A stretch of 26,167 bases of DNA from Candidatus Nanohaloarchaea archaeon (GTDB lineage Archaea; Nanohalarchaeota; Nanosalinia; Nanosalinales; Nanosalinaceae), in NCBI GenBank assembly GCA_041640035.1, contig JBEQBC010000009.1, positions 1 through 26,167 on the forward strand. The letters are read 5' to 3'. The notes beneath the pieces were generated by a model, which saw nothing but the letters and a program-made list of their open reading frames with translations, was not told the origin of the DNA and searched no databases. The translations under genes were made by a program, and so were the position numbers. Positions 10,344 through 17,799 of this stretch are shown here, piece after piece (the stretch's first letter is position 1; every line of letters begins with the position of its first letter).

Positions 10344-11316
10344 CCACATTTTTTCTTTCCTCTATATTCTCGACTGTGGTCTCTACAATCCTGTGAAGTG
10401 CCTCTTTACTGTTGAAGGCGTTGTGTGGGGTGACTATCACATCGTCTCTATCTACTAGGATATGATCCTCTAGGACTTTTTCGATGTCGTTCTCTGATTC
10501 TGCTTCTGATAGAACTTCGACATCATCTTTCATCATGGATTCGTCTTCCAGGACATCTAGACCTGCTGAAGTGACATTTCCTTCCTCCAGTGCTTCTATG
10601 AGAGCCTCCGTGTCAACTAGGCCTCCGCGGGCAGTATTCAGTATTATCGTGTTGTCCATCATATTGAATTCTTCGTAGGATAGAAGGTGGTGGTTTGAGT
10701 CGGTTAACGGTGCGTGAAGTGTTATTATGTCTGACTGTTGGAGGAGGTCCTCGAGATCTACATACATGAAGCCGAGTTCGTGTTCGAGATGTTGTTTAGG
10801 GTATGGATCGTATGCGATGACTTCCATGTTGAATCCTCTTGCTATCTCTATGACGCGTTGCCCGATGTCACCTGTTCCTATGACTCCTATTTTCTTGCCG
10901 TCTAAGTCTGTTCCTTTCAAGCCTTTGTGTGAGAAGTCTCCTTCCTCCACTTGTTCTTCGGCCTGTGAGATCTTCCTTGTCAGGTTGAGAAGTAGGCCGA
11001 ATGTGTGTTCAGCTACTGTTGAGGGTCCGTAGCTTGGTACATTTGAGACCATGACTCCGGTTCTGGCTGCGTGACCTGTGTCGATGTGGTCGAATCCTGT
11101 TGAGCGTGTGGCTATGATGTCTGCATCCATTTTGTCTATTACTTCGGCTGATACCTTGGAGTCGACGAATACTGTTACGGCATCGTATCCGCCAAGTTTA
11201 TCCACAGTATTTTCGTCGAGTGGTTGTTGGATGAACTCTATGTTGAGGCTGTGATCTTTTTTCTCCATGTATTCTTTTTGCCATTTCTCTGCGTCGAACC
11301 ACGCGACATCTGTCAT
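10324..11316 (-). CDS. ldhA: D-isomer-specific 2-hydroxyacid dehydrogenase (D-lactate dehydrogenase-like)
   Basis: RSTGFDHID, NVPSY..VAEH, GVIGTGDIG, NTARGGLVD, LDVLE, TPHNAF. Confidence 0.88.
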   Translation of the reverse strand: MTDVAWFDAEKWQKEYMEKKDHSLNIEFIQQPLDENTVDKLGGYDAVTVFVDSKVSAEVIDKMDADIIATRSTGFDHIDTGHAARTGVMVSNVPSYGPSTVAEHTFGLLLNLTRKISQAEEQVEEGDFSHKGLKGTDLDGKKIGVIGTGDIGQRVIEIARGFNMEVIAYDPYPKQHLEHELGFMYVDLEDLLQQSDIITLHAPLTDSNHHLLSYEEFNMMDNTIILNTARGGLVDTEALIEALEEGNVTSAGLDVLEDESMMKDDVEVLSEAESENDIEKVLEDHILVDRDDVIVTPHNAFNSKEALHRIVETTVENIEERKNVVNNPWS

Positions 11317-11426
11317 AAGTATTTACTGTGGGACGGTTGACTAAAAAACAGGGAGCAGGGATTAAGAGTTTTCTACCAGGAAAAAGAAGCAGATAAAAAA
11401 TTTTGTGACCAATTCGTTACAGTAAC

Positions 11427-12383
11427 ATGCCGAATATTTTAGTTCCGGAGACCCTGGAATCAAATGAACTATACGATGAACTAGATAACCAGGGTATAGA
11501 ATATACAGAGGTCGAAAGAGAAAGATTCATAGATGAACTGGCCTCAGGAGAATACGACGGATTGATAGGCAACGGACATGTCCGTATGTACGCCGCAGCA
11601 GTAGAAACAGATACCGAGATGGTGATATTCGACTACGGAGACTCCGGACTGGCAACCAGCTACCTGTCAGGAAATCCATCAGCAGACGCATCAAGCATAC
11701 AGGACATAACCGAAACATACATCCAGCAGAGCCGACTGCAGGAACAGGCAGAGTTTGGCTCTAAGATGATAAGGCACGACGCTCTCAACGACATGAATGT
11801 ACTCCGCGGCAGAATGGATATAGCTCAAGAAAGAGCGGATGAAGAGGTACAGGAGCACCTGGAAGTAGCGGAAGGTGCAGCAAGATCAATGCAAGACATA
11901 ATCGAAAGCACCAAGGCACTTTTCTCAACCAATACAGATATAGAGCCAGTACCTATCCATGAAACCGTTCAGCACCTGAAACAACAGTATGGAGATGAAG
12001 CACAGAGAAGAGGATTCGAGCTGGAAGTCGATACTCATCCGGGAATCTATGCCTGTGCCGGTGATGAAATAGTGAACATGTACGGACAGATGATCAGAAA
12101 CGGTTTCGAACATTCTGGAGGCGATCATATCAGAGTAACAGCTGAAGAAACAGAAGAAGGTCCGAAGGTCGAGTACGAGGACAACGGCGAAGGCTTCGAT
12201 CCTGAAAACATGGAGAAAGTACTGCAGGAAGGCGTCTCCGAAAACGAGGACGGCGGACTGGGAATGTTTATAATGGCTCAAAGCGCAGAAAAATACGATA
12301 TGGACCTTATTCTAGGAGAATCAGAGGACCTGGGTGGAGCAAAAATCACCACTATTCTTGAACCTGCCGAAGATGACTGTTAA
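11427..12383 (+). CDS. Cytoplasmic sensor histidine kinase (HisKA + HATPase_c)
   Basis: H-box RHDALNDM, N-box IRNGFEH, G1 EDNGEG, G2 GGLGM. No TM segment. Confidence 0.9.
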   Translation: MPNILVPETLESNELYDELDNQGIEYTEVERERFIDELASGEYDGLIGNGHVRMYAAAVETDTEMVIFDYGDSGLATSYLSGNPSADASSIQDITETYIQQSRLQEQAEFGSKMIRHDALNDMNVLRGRMDIAQERADEEVQEHLEVAEGAARSMQDIIESTKALFSTNTDIEPVPIHETVQHLKQQYGDEAQRRGFELEVDTHPGIYACAGDEIVNMYGQMIRNGFEHSGGDHIRVTAEETEEGPKVEYEDNGEGFDPENMEKVLQEGVSENEDGGLGMFIMAQSAEKYDMDLILGESEDLGGAKITTILEPAEDDC

Positions 12384-13671: not shown

Positions 13672-14223
13672 TTAGACCATATCTGTTCTCTCGATGTCGT
13701 TCTGTTCTGCATCATAACGGTCGAAGACCTCAGGTAGGTCAGCAGTGTTCAGACTACCAGGATCATATGGGATAGCACGGACAGTAACAGGATAATCCTC
13801 CCTCAGATCCATGCCGTCATGTTCTAGTAGAACCTCCACAGAACCTTCATAATGCGGGCCAGGAAGATCTTCAGAGTCCTCTACCTCTAACGGTATGATA
13901 CCGGTTTTCTCTCTTGTACTTTGAGGTACCCTGTGTCTCGCCTCGTCAGGGAAAACATAACTATCGTTCATGTTCCGGCCGTGGACTACTCCATAACCTG
14001 TCTCATCCTGATTAAATCCGGGGCTGTGTTCATATACGATTATTCTGGGTTCTTCTCCGGTCTGATGCATGGAGGTATTCAGGACCCCCTGGAAAACATT
14101 CATGCCGGAGGATATCGCGTGCTGTTCAATATCTTCCTCCGCAAGCTCTTCTCCATGCTGAGCGAAACCCTGATTTGATGCATCGTTCAGAATACCCTGT
14201 ATATCGACATCTTCATCTTCCAT
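13672..14223 (-). CDS. Hypothetical acidic protein
   Basis: 183-aa ORF with ATG start and a TTTATTAA box about 25 nt upstream. Confidence 0.7.
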   Translation of the reverse strand: MEDEDVDIQGILNDASNQGFAQHGEELAEEDIEQHAISSGMNVFQGVLNTSMHQTGEEPRIIVYEHSPGFNQDETGYGVVHGRNMNDSYVFPDEARHRVPQSTREKTGIIPLEVEDSEDLPGPHYEGSVEVLLEHDGMDLREDYPVTVRAIPYDPGSLNTADLPEVFDRYDAEQNDIERTDMV

Positions 14224-14294
14224 GTAGCCTAGTATAACATTCCAAGTTTAATAAAAGTGATTTAAAGTACCTATTTGACTTTTCTGGTTTAATG

Positions 14295-14309
14295 AAAAAA
14301 GAAGAGAAG
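14295..14309 (-). terminator. Archaeal oligo-T/pyrimidine terminator
   Basis: CTTCTCTTCTTTTTT on the minus strand downstream of the structured region. Confidence 0.55.
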
Positions 14310-14607
14310 TATTGGGGTATGTTAGCGCGTGTTTTGTTGTGTTGTGCAGCGTATAGTCTGTTGTTCTTTGGTTATCCACCTTGGAAAGCTTGTCTCGGGT
14401 TTCCGTTTGAGAAGTCCGAGTAATTTCGGTCAGGCCCTTTTGCCCGAGCTCCCCTGAGTTGAGGAGCAGGCCAGGATTTCCCAACCTACTTATCCTGTAT
14501 TAGGTATACAGGATAAACAGATTGGATCTATACGCGGTGATATCGCTCACGCTAGGCATATTAGACTTGAAGAATACAGACTTGAAGGTCTCGCCTGCGT
14601 GAGTCAT
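14295..14607 (-). ncRNA. Putative large structured ncRNA of unknown family
   Basis: Multiple nested helices whose G-U pairs work on the minus strand only, a pseudoknot, a TATA box at 14630-14638 and a U-tract at 14300-14295 (details in findings). Confidence 0.7.
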
Positions 14608-14629
14608 ATGTCTACTTTGTGAACTGACC

Positions 14630-14638
14630 TTTTTAAAA
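14630..14638 (-). promoter_or_regulatory. TATA box of the putative ncRNA
   Basis: TTTTAAAAA about 25 nt before the first helix of the structured region. Confidence 0.55.
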
Positions 14639-14690
14639 GTTTGCTGACATACTGATTTGACCCCAGAATCCAGAAACAAACCAAATTATA

Positions 14691-14708
14691 TGTTACTTTT
14701 CAGTAACA
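14691..14708. promoter_or_regulatory. Palindromic operator-like site TGTTAC-N6-GTAACA
   Basis: Perfect 6-bp inverted repeat immediately upstream of the TTTAAG box preceding 14742. Confidence 0.45.
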
Positions 14709-14741
14709 AATTTAAGCGTTGTCTGTTGTTAAGTTGATATA

Positions 14742-16271
14742 ATGAGTCCTTCCCTAGTTGACCTCGCCCGACAAGAGCTTGAGGAACATAATGTAGAGGT
14801 AGATGAGCCAAGTAGAACCAGAGCTCAGGAAGACCTTAAGATGATGGATGTTATAGAGGGAGGTAGCATCGGAGAAGGACTAAGCGCGGCAAGTTACGAT
14901 ATGCTTACAGATACAGTAAATCTTTACCAGCCAATGGCCAAGGCTGGAGCAGTAGATAATGTTCTGACGGACGAACAGATTGAGGAAGTCGTTTCCCTGG
15001 CAGACTCAGAAGATCTACCGCCCGAACTCCAGCAGTCCATGGACGACGCCTTCAAGAGCATCGATTCAGCGAAGAGCGCAATGGAAAACATGGGCTTAGA
15101 TGCACAGATAAACCAGTCGGCAGAGCAAGTATCCTCACATACGGCAATTTACGATGCATTAAGAAAAGGAGTCCCAACAGATAAGGTAGATGAACAAACC
15201 AGAGAGGAGCTGAGGGAGGAAGCACGCTGGCAGTTACAGATAAGCGCCGAACATGAACTGGTTCACAAGGCAGCCACAGATGCCTTCGTTGAACATGACG
15301 GCAGGACAGGAGCACTTCTCGAGAACCTGAGAGAAATAACTGAGATAGAGCAAGGACTGCTCTATGATGAAAAGGACCGTGATGACAAGAAGGATGTAAG
15401 AGCTCTTCTTGAGAACAAGGAATCTCAGTTCCCGCTTAACGACCAGGATCTTAGACGAGCCGCTGTAATGGAATTGGACGACGGCTACGAGCAGAAGAAA
15501 CAGGAAGTCAAGGAAAAGATCGAACTTCTTGAGAGTGAAAGAGACCGTACCGAGGAAATGCTGGAGGAAAGAACGGAAACATGGTCGGATATCATAACCG
15601 AAGACAGGAACGACATACTTGGAAAGCAAAATGAGGTAAGGGATGCCTATAGAGATTTCCAGGCAGAATTCAGGAACTTCCTGGAAGAGAACGATGAAAA
15701 AAGCAGGGAGGATTACCGTGAATTCCTGAAGGAACATGATCTCTACACACCTGAGAGAGTAGAGCGGCTGATGGATGCAGAAGATTACGAAGAAGCATTC
15801 GAAAACAAGAAAGACGAACAGATAGACCGGTTTAAAGAAAGAGAAGATGAGCTTTACGAAGAACTTGAAGAATACTTAGATGAAAGAGCTGATGAACTGG
15901 AGGAAGAGATCAAGGAGTACATAGAGCCTATGTTCGAGAGAGCTGAGGCTAACAGCGAGGTACCTGTCGGATCGGTCGGCGAATCATTCGCACATTTCTG
16001 GACCATGTATAGACGCGGAGAACTTGAGGATGAGGAAAGCCGTGAACAGAAGAAAGAAGGCTTGAGAAGAAACTATCCCAACGGAGGAGACAGAGCTGCC
16101 GAAGTCATAGACGACCTTTTCCAGCAGTACGATGAAATGGACGGCTCTGAAGAGGATAGAGTATCATATGTAATGAGTCAACAGGAAGAGTACCTTGAAA
16201 GAGAAATGGAGCCAGGCCTGATGGATGCAGTCACTGAACGGTTACCGGATTCCGACTACCTTCCTTTCTAG
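14742..16271 (+). CDS. Zincin-like (HExxH) metalloprotein with long coiled-coil insertion
   Basis: AASYDMLTDTVNL strand motif, EHELVH at nt 15252-15266, E/K/R-rich heptads, distal GESFAHF. Confidence 0.65.
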   Translation: MSPSLVDLARQELEEHNVEVDEPSRTRAQEDLKMMDVIEGGSIGEGLSAASYDMLTDTVNLYQPMAKAGAVDNVLTDEQIEEVVSLADSEDLPPELQQSMDDAFKSIDSAKSAMENMGLDAQINQSAEQVSSHTAIYDALRKGVPTDKVDEQTREELREEARWQLQISAEHELVHKAATDAFVEHDGRTGALLENLREITEIEQGLLYDEKDRDDKKDVRALLENKESQFPLNDQDLRRAAVMELDDGYEQKKQEVKEKIELLESERDRTEEMLEERTETWSDIITEDRNDILGKQNEVRDAYRDFQAEFRNFLEENDEKSREDYREFLKEHDLYTPERVERLMDAEDYEEAFENKKDEQIDRFKEREDELYEELEEYLDERADELEEEIKEYIEPMFERAEANSEVPVGSVGESFAHFWTMYRRGELEDEESREQKKEGLRRNYPNGGDRAAEVIDDLFQQYDEMDGSEEDRVSYVMSQQEEYLEREMEPGLMDAVTERLPDSDYLPF

Positions 16272-17507: not shown

Positions 17508-17575
17508 CTGTACATCACTTTAACTAAAACTAATGTGTGTTCTCATTGATAAAAATTATAACGAGAAAAGTAGTT

Positions 17576-17685
17576 TAGCGGCGTCCTAACTCTCCCACCG
17601 AAAGGTAGTACCGGTTAGATCGCTGAGAGACTTTACTTCCGTGTTCGGAATGGGTACGGGTGTTGCCCTCTCGCTCTGGCCGCTA
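17576..17685 (-). rRNA. rrf: 5S rRNA (unlinked)
   Basis: TAGCGGC...GCCGCTA terminal helix, conserved CCCGTACCCATTCCGAACACGGAAGTAAAG, GGTACT and GGGAG. Own TTTATAA box at 17711-17717. Confidence 0.96.
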
Positions 17686-17799
17686 TTATGTAACCAATCC
17701 GGGTTAAACCTTATAAACCAAATGATGGTGTTATTCTGGAAGCGCTCAAAGAGTTATTAAACTTGAATCTGTAACCCGTACAAGGTAGCAAAGAAAGAA

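Follow-up and report, generated by a model that had tools for sequence, protein, structure and literature searches.

Layout of the locus

The window, by which we mean the whole 26,167-nt stretch of DNA analysed here, carries on its minus strand a structured RNA gene followed by an orphan protein gene. Their features are listed in the order in which the minus strand is read.

14628-14643, minus: archaeal promoter with a purine-rich flank; TATA box TTTTAAAA at 14638-14631
14295-14607, minus: structured RNA gene, predicted transcript of 313 nt (start from the TATA spacing, end from the T-run)
14500-14607, minus: leaderless mini-ORF of 35 codons; AUG at 14607-14605, stop UAA at 14502-14500 in the H1 loop
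14546-14603, minus: P1 domain, in which CUCACGC/GCGUGAG closes a hypervariable hairpin region, all within the ORF (from covariation)
14535-14528 with 14356-14349, minus: long-range helix GCGUAUAG / CUAUACGC, window only, outside the family consensus
14491-14515, minus: H1 hairpin UAUCCUGUAU / AUACAGGAUA with a 5-nt loop at 14505-14501 (from covariation)
14485-14490, minus: AGUAGG, invariant in 31/31 sequences, 12 nt past the stop codon's first base
14428-14486, minus: core rod of four helices, H2-H5 (from covariation)
14486-14480 with 14434-14428, minus: H2, 98% paired, 4/7 pairs compensatory
14476-14473 with 14438-14435, minus: H3, part of the rod
14471-14468 with 14445-14442, minus: H4 (H4 and H5 together, 8-9/11 pairs compensatory)
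14467-14461 with 14454-14448, minus: H5, GCUCCUC/GGGGAGC (compensatory pairs counted with H4)
14455-14460, minus: invariant loop AACUCA capping the rod
14424-14429, minus: CCGAAA at the rod's 3' foot; in 31 sequences its G, A and A never vary and the C, C and A around them hardly do
14370-14382, minus: Shine-Dalgarno-like motif AAGGUGGAUAACC in the A/C-rich tail (from 16S complementarity)
14346-14352, minus: tail motif ACGCUGC, present in 18/45 tails
14294-14308, minus: pyrimidine/T-run CUUCUCUUCUUUUUUC, likely an archaeal terminator (from sequence)
13672-14223, minus: 183-aa orphan gene; motif HSPGF invariant; separate TATA box 33 nt 5' of the ATG

On the minus strand, AUG 14607 lies 31 nt 3' of the TATA box, and the TATA-to-ATG distances of the host genome's long ORFs peak at 31-32 nt. 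All 20 aligned homologs keep the box, and a script count puts it 29-32 nt 5' of the start codon, a range that becomes 30-32 nt when one locus (L014) is counted from its aligned GUG. At the other end, the T-run at 14308-14294 follows a tail rich in A and C (A 42%, C 26%, G 15% and T 17%, versus roughly 27/23/23/28 in the genome), and such a run after the tail recurs in 45 of 56 copies, roughly 100-270 nt past the rod and behind a variable tail. The minus strand folds with a minimum free energy (MFE) of -98.8 kcal/mol (z -5.3), which 0 of 100 shuffles equal, whereas the plus strand reaches a z of -2.7; two pairs are often G-U on the minus strand (UG in 24/31 and GU in 18/31 sequences). The TATA box, the C/A-rich tail, the U-tract and the minus-strand fold with its G-U pairs, all claimed in a preliminary description made from the sequence alone, were thus borne out. 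The element exists, with an anatomy other than the one first drawn.

Distribution and novelty

Homologs are confined to the Nanohaloarchaeota, tiny salt-loving archaea, where 27 of the 49 other genomes in the window's family carry the RNA; neither model found one in the 20 genomes of the other four families. Even within genera the distribution is patchy, with copies in 0/2 other genomes of the window's own genus (g1), 3/6 of g2 and 3/5 of g11. Since 22 of the 49 family genomes yielded no copy, including the closed genome G019 and the 96%-complete same-genus genome G001, the RNA is dispensable or replaceable; searching five negative family genomes, these two among them, with higher sensitivity also returned nothing. 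Metagenomes supply more copies, nhmmer confirmed 22 Nanohaloarchaea-type records among 41 pattern hits, and the matching records include cultured carriers, such as Nanohaloarchaea archaeon SG9 and Ca. Nanosalina sp. VS9-1. At some loci (L014, L049, L041, L110 and L124) two to three diverged copies form tandem arrays.

None of the 4227 models of Rfam 15 matched the element at gathering score, and at E ≤ 10 there were eight chance-level matches of 6.9-18.7 bits, against cut-offs of 50-90. When 20 homologous loci were compared with Rfam 15, the sole match was one flanking tRNA. We found no description of such an RNA in the literature, of which the supplementary motif lists of ncRNA-discovery papers could still hold one. 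These searches, together with a structure that covaries across Nanohaloarchaeota, uphold the novel DPANN ncRNA that the preliminary description had put forward; on the sequence evidence, the element is a new RNA family limited to one Nanohaloarchaeota family.

The same description had offered a very divergent RNase P or SRP RNA as the other possibility, for which speak the size of about 310 nt and the GGGAAAUCC string pointed out there. Archaeal RNase P RNA (RF00373) and SRP RNA (RF01857) do resemble the element in size, in having their own promoter and in lying in a gene-free gap, but RF00373 has no match in 14200-14720 and RF01857 none in the region, even at E ≤ 10, and absence from 22/49 family genomes is unlike a universal RNA. 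Moreover, other loci of the same 978-kb assembly carry an SRP RNA (contig 1:158263-158538, 132.9 bits, cut-off 96.5) and a full-length RNase P RNA candidate (contig 4:48829-49139, E ~1e-10, covering RF00373 model positions 1-288 at 41 bits, below the cut-off of 84). Because both are found elsewhere in the genome, the element should be neither of them, and we consider this identity extremely improbable. A tmRNA or tRNA-like gene was also rejected, as ARAGORN reports 0 genes in 14150-14750 and the ORF starts at the 5'-terminal AUG. As tmRNA is generally described, it shares with the element a structured RNA of a few hundred nucleotides and a short ORF with its stop codon in a hairpin; however, the element lacks a tRNA-like domain, no conserved pseudoknots were found in it, and its ORF opens at the 5'-terminal AUG whereas that of tmRNA is entered at an internal resume codon. 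No tmRNA is known from archaea.

Patchiness inside genera, tandem arrays of diverged copies and orphan flanking genes could also point to an accessory or selfish module, of a defence or toxin-antitoxin-like kind, of which the RNA would be one part and the neighbouring orphan protein perhaps another. Against this, a mobile origin finds 0 matches in viral contigs, phage records and plasmid records, the surroundings showed neither an integrase nor any other mobile gene, and no protein partner recurs beyond four loci, which makes such a module very unlikely.

Covarying helices

Across 31 sequences aligned with MAFFT, 93.1% of the cells of the whole model are paired and 18 of its 32 pairs show compensatory changes, a result reached by 0 of 500 shuffles; for 58 distinct sequences, in an alignment fitted to the structure model, the values are 94.1% and 22/32. 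A model-free all-against-all scan of a gapless 35-sequence alignment retrieves P1, H2, H4 and H5, and detected no long-range pairing beyond P1, H1, H2, H4 and H5. In this unbiased scan all six of six P1 pairs (14603-14597 with 14552-14546) are compensatory, which upholds the 5' helix CUCACGC/GCGUGAG as first proposed, and the P1 domain folds with a mean z of -3.0, below -2 in 30/35 copies. The H1 stem (14515-14506 with 14500-14491) is 93.9% paired with 4/10 compensatory pairs in one alignment (A2) and 94.5% paired with 7/10 in another (A3). This stem had been drawn together with an extension, CCAAUCUG/UAGGUUGG, and here the two parts separate: the stem covaries, whereas the extension has 0/10 compensatory pairs, shows 9-19 broken cells at five pairs, and competes with the covarying H2 (GGUUGGG/CCUGACC, 14486-14480 with 14434-14428).

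The remaining parts of the first drawing fared unevenly. H5 covaries as GCUCCUC/GGGGAGC, but GGCCU/GGGCC, the helix said to enclose it, reaches only 77% pairing, with a middle pair that 22 of 31 sequences break. At long range, GCGUAUAG/CUAUACGC is a strong helix in the window alone, at -15.7 kcal/mol versus -2.6 to -8.9 in the 18 other copies compared, which are those with the tail motif. For the proposed pseudoknot CUCGGG/CCCGAG, the window is the one copy among 35 that has the 6-mer partner, and in place of the CCGA/UCGG helix we find CCG/CGG pairs in 28-33 of 35 copies, which do not covary and overlap H2. Of the first fold, three helices are therefore correct, and four elements are wrong or peculiar to the window.

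A conserved leaderless mini-ORF

The preliminary description made no mention of the mini-ORF. Its layout is the same in 52 of 56 unique copies: the frame starts at the 5' end, spans 27-38 codons and stops within the H1 loop or right behind it. In each of these 52 a TATA box is followed 30-32 nt on by the start codon (AUG in 51 copies, GUG in one) and the stop lies 6-13 nt before AGUAGG, at exactly 12 nt in 42 of them. Two further copies carry a 60-nt insertion that leaves the frame intact and lengthens it to 55 codons. Indels in the ORF region preserve the frame, and in all length classes (27, 30, 33, 34, 35, 38 and 55 codons) the stop falls at the H1 region; in the divergent second copy at L041 the frame continues through the rod. 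Frame 0 contains 0 stops in 712 codons of the variable region, against 36 and 44 in 682 codons of the other frames, and the probability of an open frame under shuffling is 0.18-0.46 per sequence. This statistic is weaker than the raw numbers, since a single conserved UGA within the P1 strand accounts for about 27 of the 36 frame-1 stops, leaving about nine independent ones, and since the sequences are related. P1 starts 4 nt after the AUG, so close that it could hinder leaderless initiation. Read-through or frameshifting into a longer protein was rejected because, past the stop, frame 0 contains further stops in some homologs (L008 and L018).

The frame could in principle be a by-product of the AUG start and of composition and structure, in a purely non-coding structured RNA. 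Covariation is indeed strong all through the ORF region, and frame 1, with its roughly nine non-conserved stops, is likewise nearly clear. But AUG or GUG stands at the exact leaderless spacing in 52/52 copies, at least five independent indel classes (the 60-nt insertion included) are all multiples of three, no stops occur where shuffles predict about one per sequence, and the stop is always in or just after H1. We regard a purely non-coding RNA as unlikely.

No more probable, in our judgement, is an ordinary mRNA encoding some 35 residues of a small protein, with hairpin and rod as a structured 3' UTR that would control stability or translation. In its favour are the conserved ORF with its start at the leaderless position, the recurring C-terminal residues S-N-L-(N/F)-I-L-Y, a median dN/dS of 0.46, below 1 (15 close pairs; noisy), which leaves room for some constraint at the peptide level, and the documented archaeal sRNAs that encode small proteins (PMC12482152). 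However, the highest conservation lies after the stop codon, and the conserved C-terminal codons are the H1 arm, where the residue class shifts when H1 covaries: I-L becomes I-A, T-T or T-V, compensatory changes altering residues freely. The N-terminal M-T-H is likewise a P1 strand and changes with its covariation. Variability across the ORF has no codon-position periodicity and no third-position excess, and the middle of the peptide is near saturation. Constraint falls on the frame and on where it ends, and barely on the peptide. The conserved leaderless ORF that had been missed thus moves the reading from a plain ncRNA to an RNA engaged by ribosomes.

Neighbouring genes and the tail

The 183-aa HSPGF protein has no match in Pfam, NCBIfam or PDB sequences, five unnamed homologs among 5.8 billion proteins, and a blank result in a protein atlas. 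HSPGF homologs lie directly downstream of RNA copies at three other loci (L041, L049 and L124), so that, judging by position, the gene is possibly linked to the RNA. A family of 129-131 aa downstream of the RNA at three loci (L118, L134 and L152) is not its kin (hhalign probability 0.9%). Flanking proteins cluster only among close relatives.

With alternative pairings and a T-run behind its mini-ORF, and an HSPGF-family gene directly downstream at four loci (the window's and the three just named), the RNA resembles an attenuator, and it might be a cis-acting leader, either leader-peptide attenuator or riboswitch, that controls read-through into the downstream gene, here HSPGF. But the RNA has no conserved downstream gene, and at 6 of 19 loci examined the next ORF runs in the opposite direction; the HSPGF gene has a TATA box of its own, 33 nt before its ATG; one locus (L079) has it with no RNA upstream, and it was found in only 3/41 family genomes versus 27/49 other family genomes for the RNA; and the T-run comes some 100-270 nt beyond the rod. 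We found neither the conserved gene association expected of a riboswitch, the conserved domain instead following the only conserved ORF, nor, with neighbours that differ or face the other way, the conserved regulated gene downstream that an attenuator would have. A cis-acting leader is therefore quite unlikely.

The tail holds a GGUGA/GAGGU/AGGUG motif in 31 of 45 cases, complementary to the 16S 3' end GGAUCACCUCC of the relative G003, from which the anti-Shine-Dalgarno sequence was taken because 16S rRNA was not found in the window's assembly. By eye, we saw no conserved start codon after this Shine-Dalgarno-like motif and no internal pairing partner for AGGUGAU.

A proposed ribosome-engaged RNA

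In the explanation that we consider best overall, and hold with about as much confidence as doubt, the element is a stand-alone structured RNA that is engaged by ribosomes and remodelled through its leaderless mini-ORF. Taken alone, the parts that the sequences show directly have our high confidence: that the gene exists and is conserved, that it has these helices and that its frame is constrained. The course of events, from transcription and translation to the switch and any cellular role, is what we infer from the sequences. Transcription would begin about 31 nt after the strong TATA box, so that the RNA opens with AUG like the host's leaderless mRNAs, and ribosomes would be expected to load at the 5' end. 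They would read the 35-codon frame through P1 and the 5' arm of H1 and stop in the H1 loop, which leaves 12 nt to the invariant AGUAGG and the H2-H5 rod; the conserved property would be that the ribosome reaches this point and stops there.

Translation would in this way melt P1 and H1 and likely set the partner of the GGUUGG segment, which may pair either upstream, extending H1 as in the window's MFE fold, or downstream in the covarying H2. The two pairings are nearly isoenergetic, with a mean difference of 0.18 kcal/mol; MFE folds contain the upstream pairing in 13/35 copies and H2 in 12/35, and masking the ORF region lets H2 form in 27/35. Translation might thereby act as a gate for the rod and for the A/C-rich tail, which bears the Shine-Dalgarno-like motif. 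The probable binding surface for a partner, for example a protein or the ribosome, is the rod, capped by the AACUCA loop. We propose this translation-gated switch tentatively, and it may not be general, because several homologs break the upstream pairing, which lacks compensatory changes, and only the downstream pairing covaries. Further still, the element may be a ribosome-sensing or ribosome-sequestering RNA, an arrest-peptide-like switch or ribosome sponge gated by its own translation, in which, in a nano-archaeon that depends on a host, a leaderless ribosome would be driven through two covarying helices and parked, at the stop codon in a hairpin loop, against a four-helix rod while the tail's Shine-Dalgarno mimic could hold a small subunit. 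This more specific idea is speculative and rather unlikely, and we know of no translation-gated device of this kind in Archaea.

Comparison with known systems places the proposed ribosome-engaged RNA beside two classes. Bacterial leader-peptide attenuators and arrest-peptide switches, such as the trp and his leaders, ErmCL, TnaC and SecM, would be alike in that translation of a short ORF, not its product, would on our reading remodel downstream pairings, and are alike in that the N-terminal part varies while the last codons are conserved, and in that the stop or stall site adjoins alternative helices. The element differs in having no conserved regulated gene, a T-run far from the alternative helices, and a four-helix rod of 59 nt that far exceeds the terminator/antiterminator pair of an attenuator; these systems are bacterial, whereas the element is archaeal with a leaderless ORF. 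To our knowledge, leader-peptide or arrest-type mechanisms are not established in Archaea.

The second class is that of dual-function sRNAs, known in bacteria from SgrS/SgrT and RNAIII/hld and, for Archaea, reportedly represented by the spRNAs of Methanosarcina mazei. Ribosome occupancy or encoded small proteins are also described for Haloferax volcanii sRNAs (PMC12482152). Like the members of this class, the element is a short RNA with a promoter and a terminator of its own, as read from the DNA, and combines a small ORF, in 52/56 copies, with a conserved non-coding structure, the rod covarying past the stop. It differs in what is kept, namely the frame and its end in a hairpin loop and hardly the peptide sequence, and in that its ORF is leaderless and overlaps covarying helices; it has no sequence or structure homology to any of these RNAs.

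Significance

DPANN archaea have genomes of about 1 Mb, and almost nothing is known of their regulatory RNA. Here an element with a strong promoter, good conservation and clear covariation lies outside all 4227 described RNA families. For the annotation of nanohaloarchaeal genomes a covariance model is gained, the 35-codon ORF should not be annotated as an ordinary protein gene, and the clade's candidate RNase P RNA scores below the Rfam cut-off. The constraint on the element is unusual, as the frame stays open across covarying helices while the peptide drifts. Because cultured carriers are among the matching records, transcript mapping and ribosome profiling are feasible, and the element offers a testable case for translation acting on an RNA fold in Archaea.

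Identity and distribution of the element

We predict from the sequence that the element is a real, new and lineage-restricted structured RNA gene, whose distinctive feature is a conserved leaderless mini-ORF terminating at helix H1. It occurs as a single copy in the window's genome and is laid out as follows.

Between genes 13672-14223 (minus) and 14742-16271 (plus): intergenic gap holding the element on the minus strand
14638-14631, minus: TATA box, sequence TTTTAAAA
14607-14605, minus: AUG, 31 nt 3' of the TATA box
14308-14294, minus: pyrimidine/T-run, closing ~300 nt of foldable sequence after the AUG

Relative to dinucleotide shuffles, the minus strand folds at -98.8 kcal/mol with z = -5.3, whereas the plus strand reaches just z = -2.7. 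A stand-alone 5S rRNA gene (17573-17687; 67.7 bits) lies ~3 kb upstream of the element, likewise on the minus strand, and no other rRNA gene is present within the window.

A scan of the gap against Rfam 15, as the preliminary description had proposed, gave no match at the gathering score, which places the element outside the Rfam 15 families; window-wide, the only matches were the 5S rRNA and two tRNAs. A permissive scan of 14200-14720 returned eight matches, which score 6.9-18.7 bits where the cut-offs stand at 50-90 bits. A literature search of main article texts on Nanohaloarchaea RNA and transcriptomes found no description of such an RNA, and the nearest concept is that of the ribosome-associated and small-protein-encoding sRNAs of Haloferax volcanii (PMC12482152). 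The earlier suggestion of a novel RNA therefore holds.

Its alternative, a very divergent RNase P or SRP RNA, was wrong. The window's own assembly (978,572 bases, 24 contigs, 89% complete) carries an Archaea_SRP match on contig 1 (132.9 bits, cut-off 96.5) and, on contig 4, an RNaseP_arch match of 41 bits (E ~1e-10, cut-off 84) over model positions 1-288. The latter is a probable RNase P RNA spanning the whole RF00373 model (contig 4:48829-49139, minus; 1501-1811 of locus L001), with a tRNA ~310 nt away. Judging from this match, the RNase P RNA of the clade is probably so divergent that Rfam's threshold would miss it. Moreover, the element is absent from many relatives, unlike a universal RNA, which also argues against either identity.

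By BLASTN, the central 110-120 nt recur at 73-87% identity in 18 of 60 related genomes; in genome G003 the identity is 80% over 295 nt. A degenerate core pattern matched 41 records in a species-representative collection. An nhmmer profile confirmed 22, of which 21 are titled Nanohaloarchaea, Nanohalobium, Nanosalina or Nanohalarchaeota and one "uncultured archaeon"; none of the 19 bacterial records matching the pattern was upheld. Viral contigs yielded no match to the core pattern, and phage and plasmid records no BLAST match to the full element. Metagenome contigs gave 67 pattern loci, ~30 of them upheld by a covariance model, and the working set after removal of duplicates comprised 56 unique copies. 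Two covariance models, R1 of the core and the broader R2, agreed: among 49 further genomes from the window's family the element was found in 27, and among 20 from the remaining four families in the order/phylum set it was found in none. A sensitive search of five genomes did not find it in two others of the window's genus (96% and 74% complete) or in three more from the family, including a closed one. Conservation of the flanking genes is limited to close relatives.

Five loci hold two or three diverged tandem copies:

L049, 1370-3297 (minus): tandem array
L014, 1420-2145: tandem array
L110, 6012-7270: tandem array
L041, 1840-3542: tandem array
L124, 2402-4195: tandem array

Every copy in an array comes with a TATA box and a mini-ORF of its own, and the interior of helix P1 and the tail vary within one array.

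A covarying fold

The supported fold consists of P1, H1 and a core rod (H2-H5) capped by an invariant loop.

14603-14597 with 14552-14546, minus: P1, closing a hypervariable hairpin region
14515-14506 with 14500-14491, minus: H1
14490-14485, minus: AGUAGG, invariant in 31 sequences
14486-14480 with 14434-14428, minus: H2
14476-14473 with 14438-14435, minus: H3
14471-14468 with 14445-14442, minus: H4
14467-14461 with 14454-14448, minus: H5
14460-14455, minus: invariant loop AACUCA
14429-14424, minus: CCGAAA, its GAA invariant in 31 sequences

When 31 core sequences were aligned with MAFFT, 93.1% of cells in this structure were paired and 18 of 32 pairs had changed on both sides; none of 500 column shuffles matched it on any of five measures, and slid controls fell to 30-53% paired. 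With 58 distinct model-aligned sequences the figures were 94.1% and 22 of 32 compensatory pairs, in an alignment biased toward the model. As a guard against circularity, all column pairs were scanned in a gapless alignment restricted to the 35 of 56 copies with standard spacing; the other 21 are truncated, strongly divergent or carry indels. Ranked highest were H5 (5/7 pairs compensatory), P1 (6/6), H2 (3/7), H4 and the invariant H1, and no long-range or pseudoknot helix emerged.

The helices first proposed for this RNA thus stand in part. Covariation analysis confirmed the 5' helix (P1), the H1 stem and GCUCCUC/GGGGAGC (H5). The proposed extension CCAAUCUG/UAGGUUGG fails, with 0 of 10 pairs compensatory and five broken in 9-19 of 31 sequences, and it competes with the covarying H2 for the same GGUUGG. 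For GGCCU/GGGCC the paired fraction is 77% and one pair breaks in 22 of 31 sequences; H3 plus H4 fit better. The long-range helix reaches -15.7 kcal/mol in the window versus -2.6 to -8.9 in 18 other copies with the tail motif, and the partner required for the pseudoknot is present in 1 of 35 copies. CCGA/UCGG does pair, but it shows no covariation and overlaps H2.

The copies come in two sizes: the window's belongs to the short class (~300-313 nt), and the long class measures ~380-460 nt. In their A/C-rich tail, a GGUGA-type motif recurs in 31 of 45 copies and a second motif, ACGCU(G/U)C, in 18 of 45. The former shows complementarity to the 3' end of 16S rRNA, ...GGAUCACCUCC, of the relative G003 (the assembly to which the window belongs has no 16S rRNA gene), and no start codon is conserved after it. 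Divergent tandem copies, such as the second in L041, finish at a T-run straight after the rod, so the minimal unit is the ORF, H1 and the rod.

A conserved, putatively leaderless mini-ORF

Starting at the conserved AUG, frame 0 stays open until it meets a stop codon within the H1 loop, and the other frames are interrupted. An automatic test for a TATA-like box, a start, an ORF and a stop near AGUAGG was passed by 52 of the 56 unique copies. In these, the start codon (AUG in 51, GUG in one) lies 30-32 nt after the box, the ORF spans 27-38 codons, and the stop (UGA 34, UAA 17, UAG 1) precedes AGUAGG by 6-13 nt, 12 nt in 42 copies. A small subfamily (L168, L163 and L107), counted here with distances of 6 and 9, by eye lacks the loop stop and has UAA four codons on, directly after H1. 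Two of the four failing copies have a 60-nt structured in-frame insertion between P1 and H1, giving 55 codons, and a TATA box beyond the extracted sequence (L116, about 11190-11472; L124, about 2240-2523). One other is truncated by a contig end, and the divergent second copy of L041 continues past the usual stop. The insertion folds into two hairpins and is in frame and stop-free.

Across 30 sequences, the variable part contains 0 stops in 712 frame-0 codons versus 36/682 and 44/682 in the other frames. Two points temper this contrast: the sequences are related, and ~27 of the frame-1 stops are a single UGA conserved in the P1 strand. Shuffled versions of these 30 sequences keep the frame open with a probability of 0.18-0.46 each. 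Independent evidence for the frame is that AUG and stop are in frame in every length class (27, 30, 33, 34, 35, 38 and 55 codons).

Is it the peptide or the act of translation that is maintained? No segment showed an excess of third-position variability in 24 sequences. The conserved N-terminal residues fall on the P1 strand and the C-terminal ones on the H1 arm, and both switch class as these helices covary, M-T-H becoming M-I-G or M-L-L and I-L-Y becoming I-A-Y, T-T-Y or T-V-Y. For codons 5-28 the median dN/dS comes to 0.46, a very noisy value (range 0.12-2.44; 15 pairs differing by 3-30%). Peptide-level constraint would thus be weak at most, and we conclude that mainly the frame, rather than the peptide, is likely to be kept.

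A TATA-to-ATG spacing of 31-32 nt is the leaderless arrangement in archaea. Among 810 long ORFs crudely called in the window's genome, 53 of them with a box at 28-36 nt, the interval between a TATA-like box and the first ATG has a sharp maximum at 31-32 nt, which indicates that leaderless mRNAs probably occur there. A GGUGA-type Shine-Dalgarno motif lies at -16 to -4 in 99 of the 810. The element's own spacing equals this leaderless spacing, making its translation plausible. When the first 68 nt are folded, the AUG stays free of pairing, by eye, in the large majority of 35 copies, P1 begins ~4 nt after it, and this 5' domain has a mean z of -3.0, with 30 of 35 copies below -2.

Neighbouring proteins

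The gene downstream of the element has a separate TATA box, 33 nt ahead of the ATG, and encodes a 183-aa protein without a Pfam, NCBIfam or PDB-sequence match and with just five unnamed relatives in 5.8 billion proteins. We call this orphan, acidic family of 183-188 aa HSPGF, after its invariant Y-x-H-S-P-G-F.

Window, 13672-14223 (minus): HSPGF, directly downstream of the element
L041, 3668-4234: HSPGF, directly downstream of an element copy
L049, 684-1250 (minus): HSPGF, directly downstream of an element copy
L124, 4331-4885: HSPGF, directly downstream of an element copy
L079, 1432-1986 (minus): HSPGF, no element copy upstream

Adjacency thus holds in four loci and not in one, and the protein was found in just 3 of 41 family genomes; its link to the element is suggestive only. 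A second small acidic family (129-131 aa), unrelated to HSPGF by profile comparison, lies downstream of three short-type copies.

L118, 4303-4692: 129-131-aa family
L134, 1412-1807 (minus): 129-131-aa family
L152, 428-817: 129-131-aa family

A proposed translation-gated fold

A ribosome reaching the stop codon would have to open P1 and H1. Given that a ribosome's downstream footprint is roughly a dozen nucleotides, it would at that point border on AGUAGG and H2. The GGUUGG segment has two possible partners, CCAAUC upstream and, downstream, the strand with which it makes H2; in constrained folds of 35 copies the two pairings differ by 0.18 kcal/mol on average. The minimum free energy fold holds the upstream pairing in 13 of 35 copies and H2 in 12, and in the window it takes the upstream pairing. 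Masking the ORF region raises the number of copies that form H2 to 27 of 35. Since H2 alone of the two pairings covaries, the switch is put forward as a hypothesis, which the near-equal pairings and the masking result would fit. We infer, as the best reading of the element, that its fold may be gated by translation of the mini-ORF.
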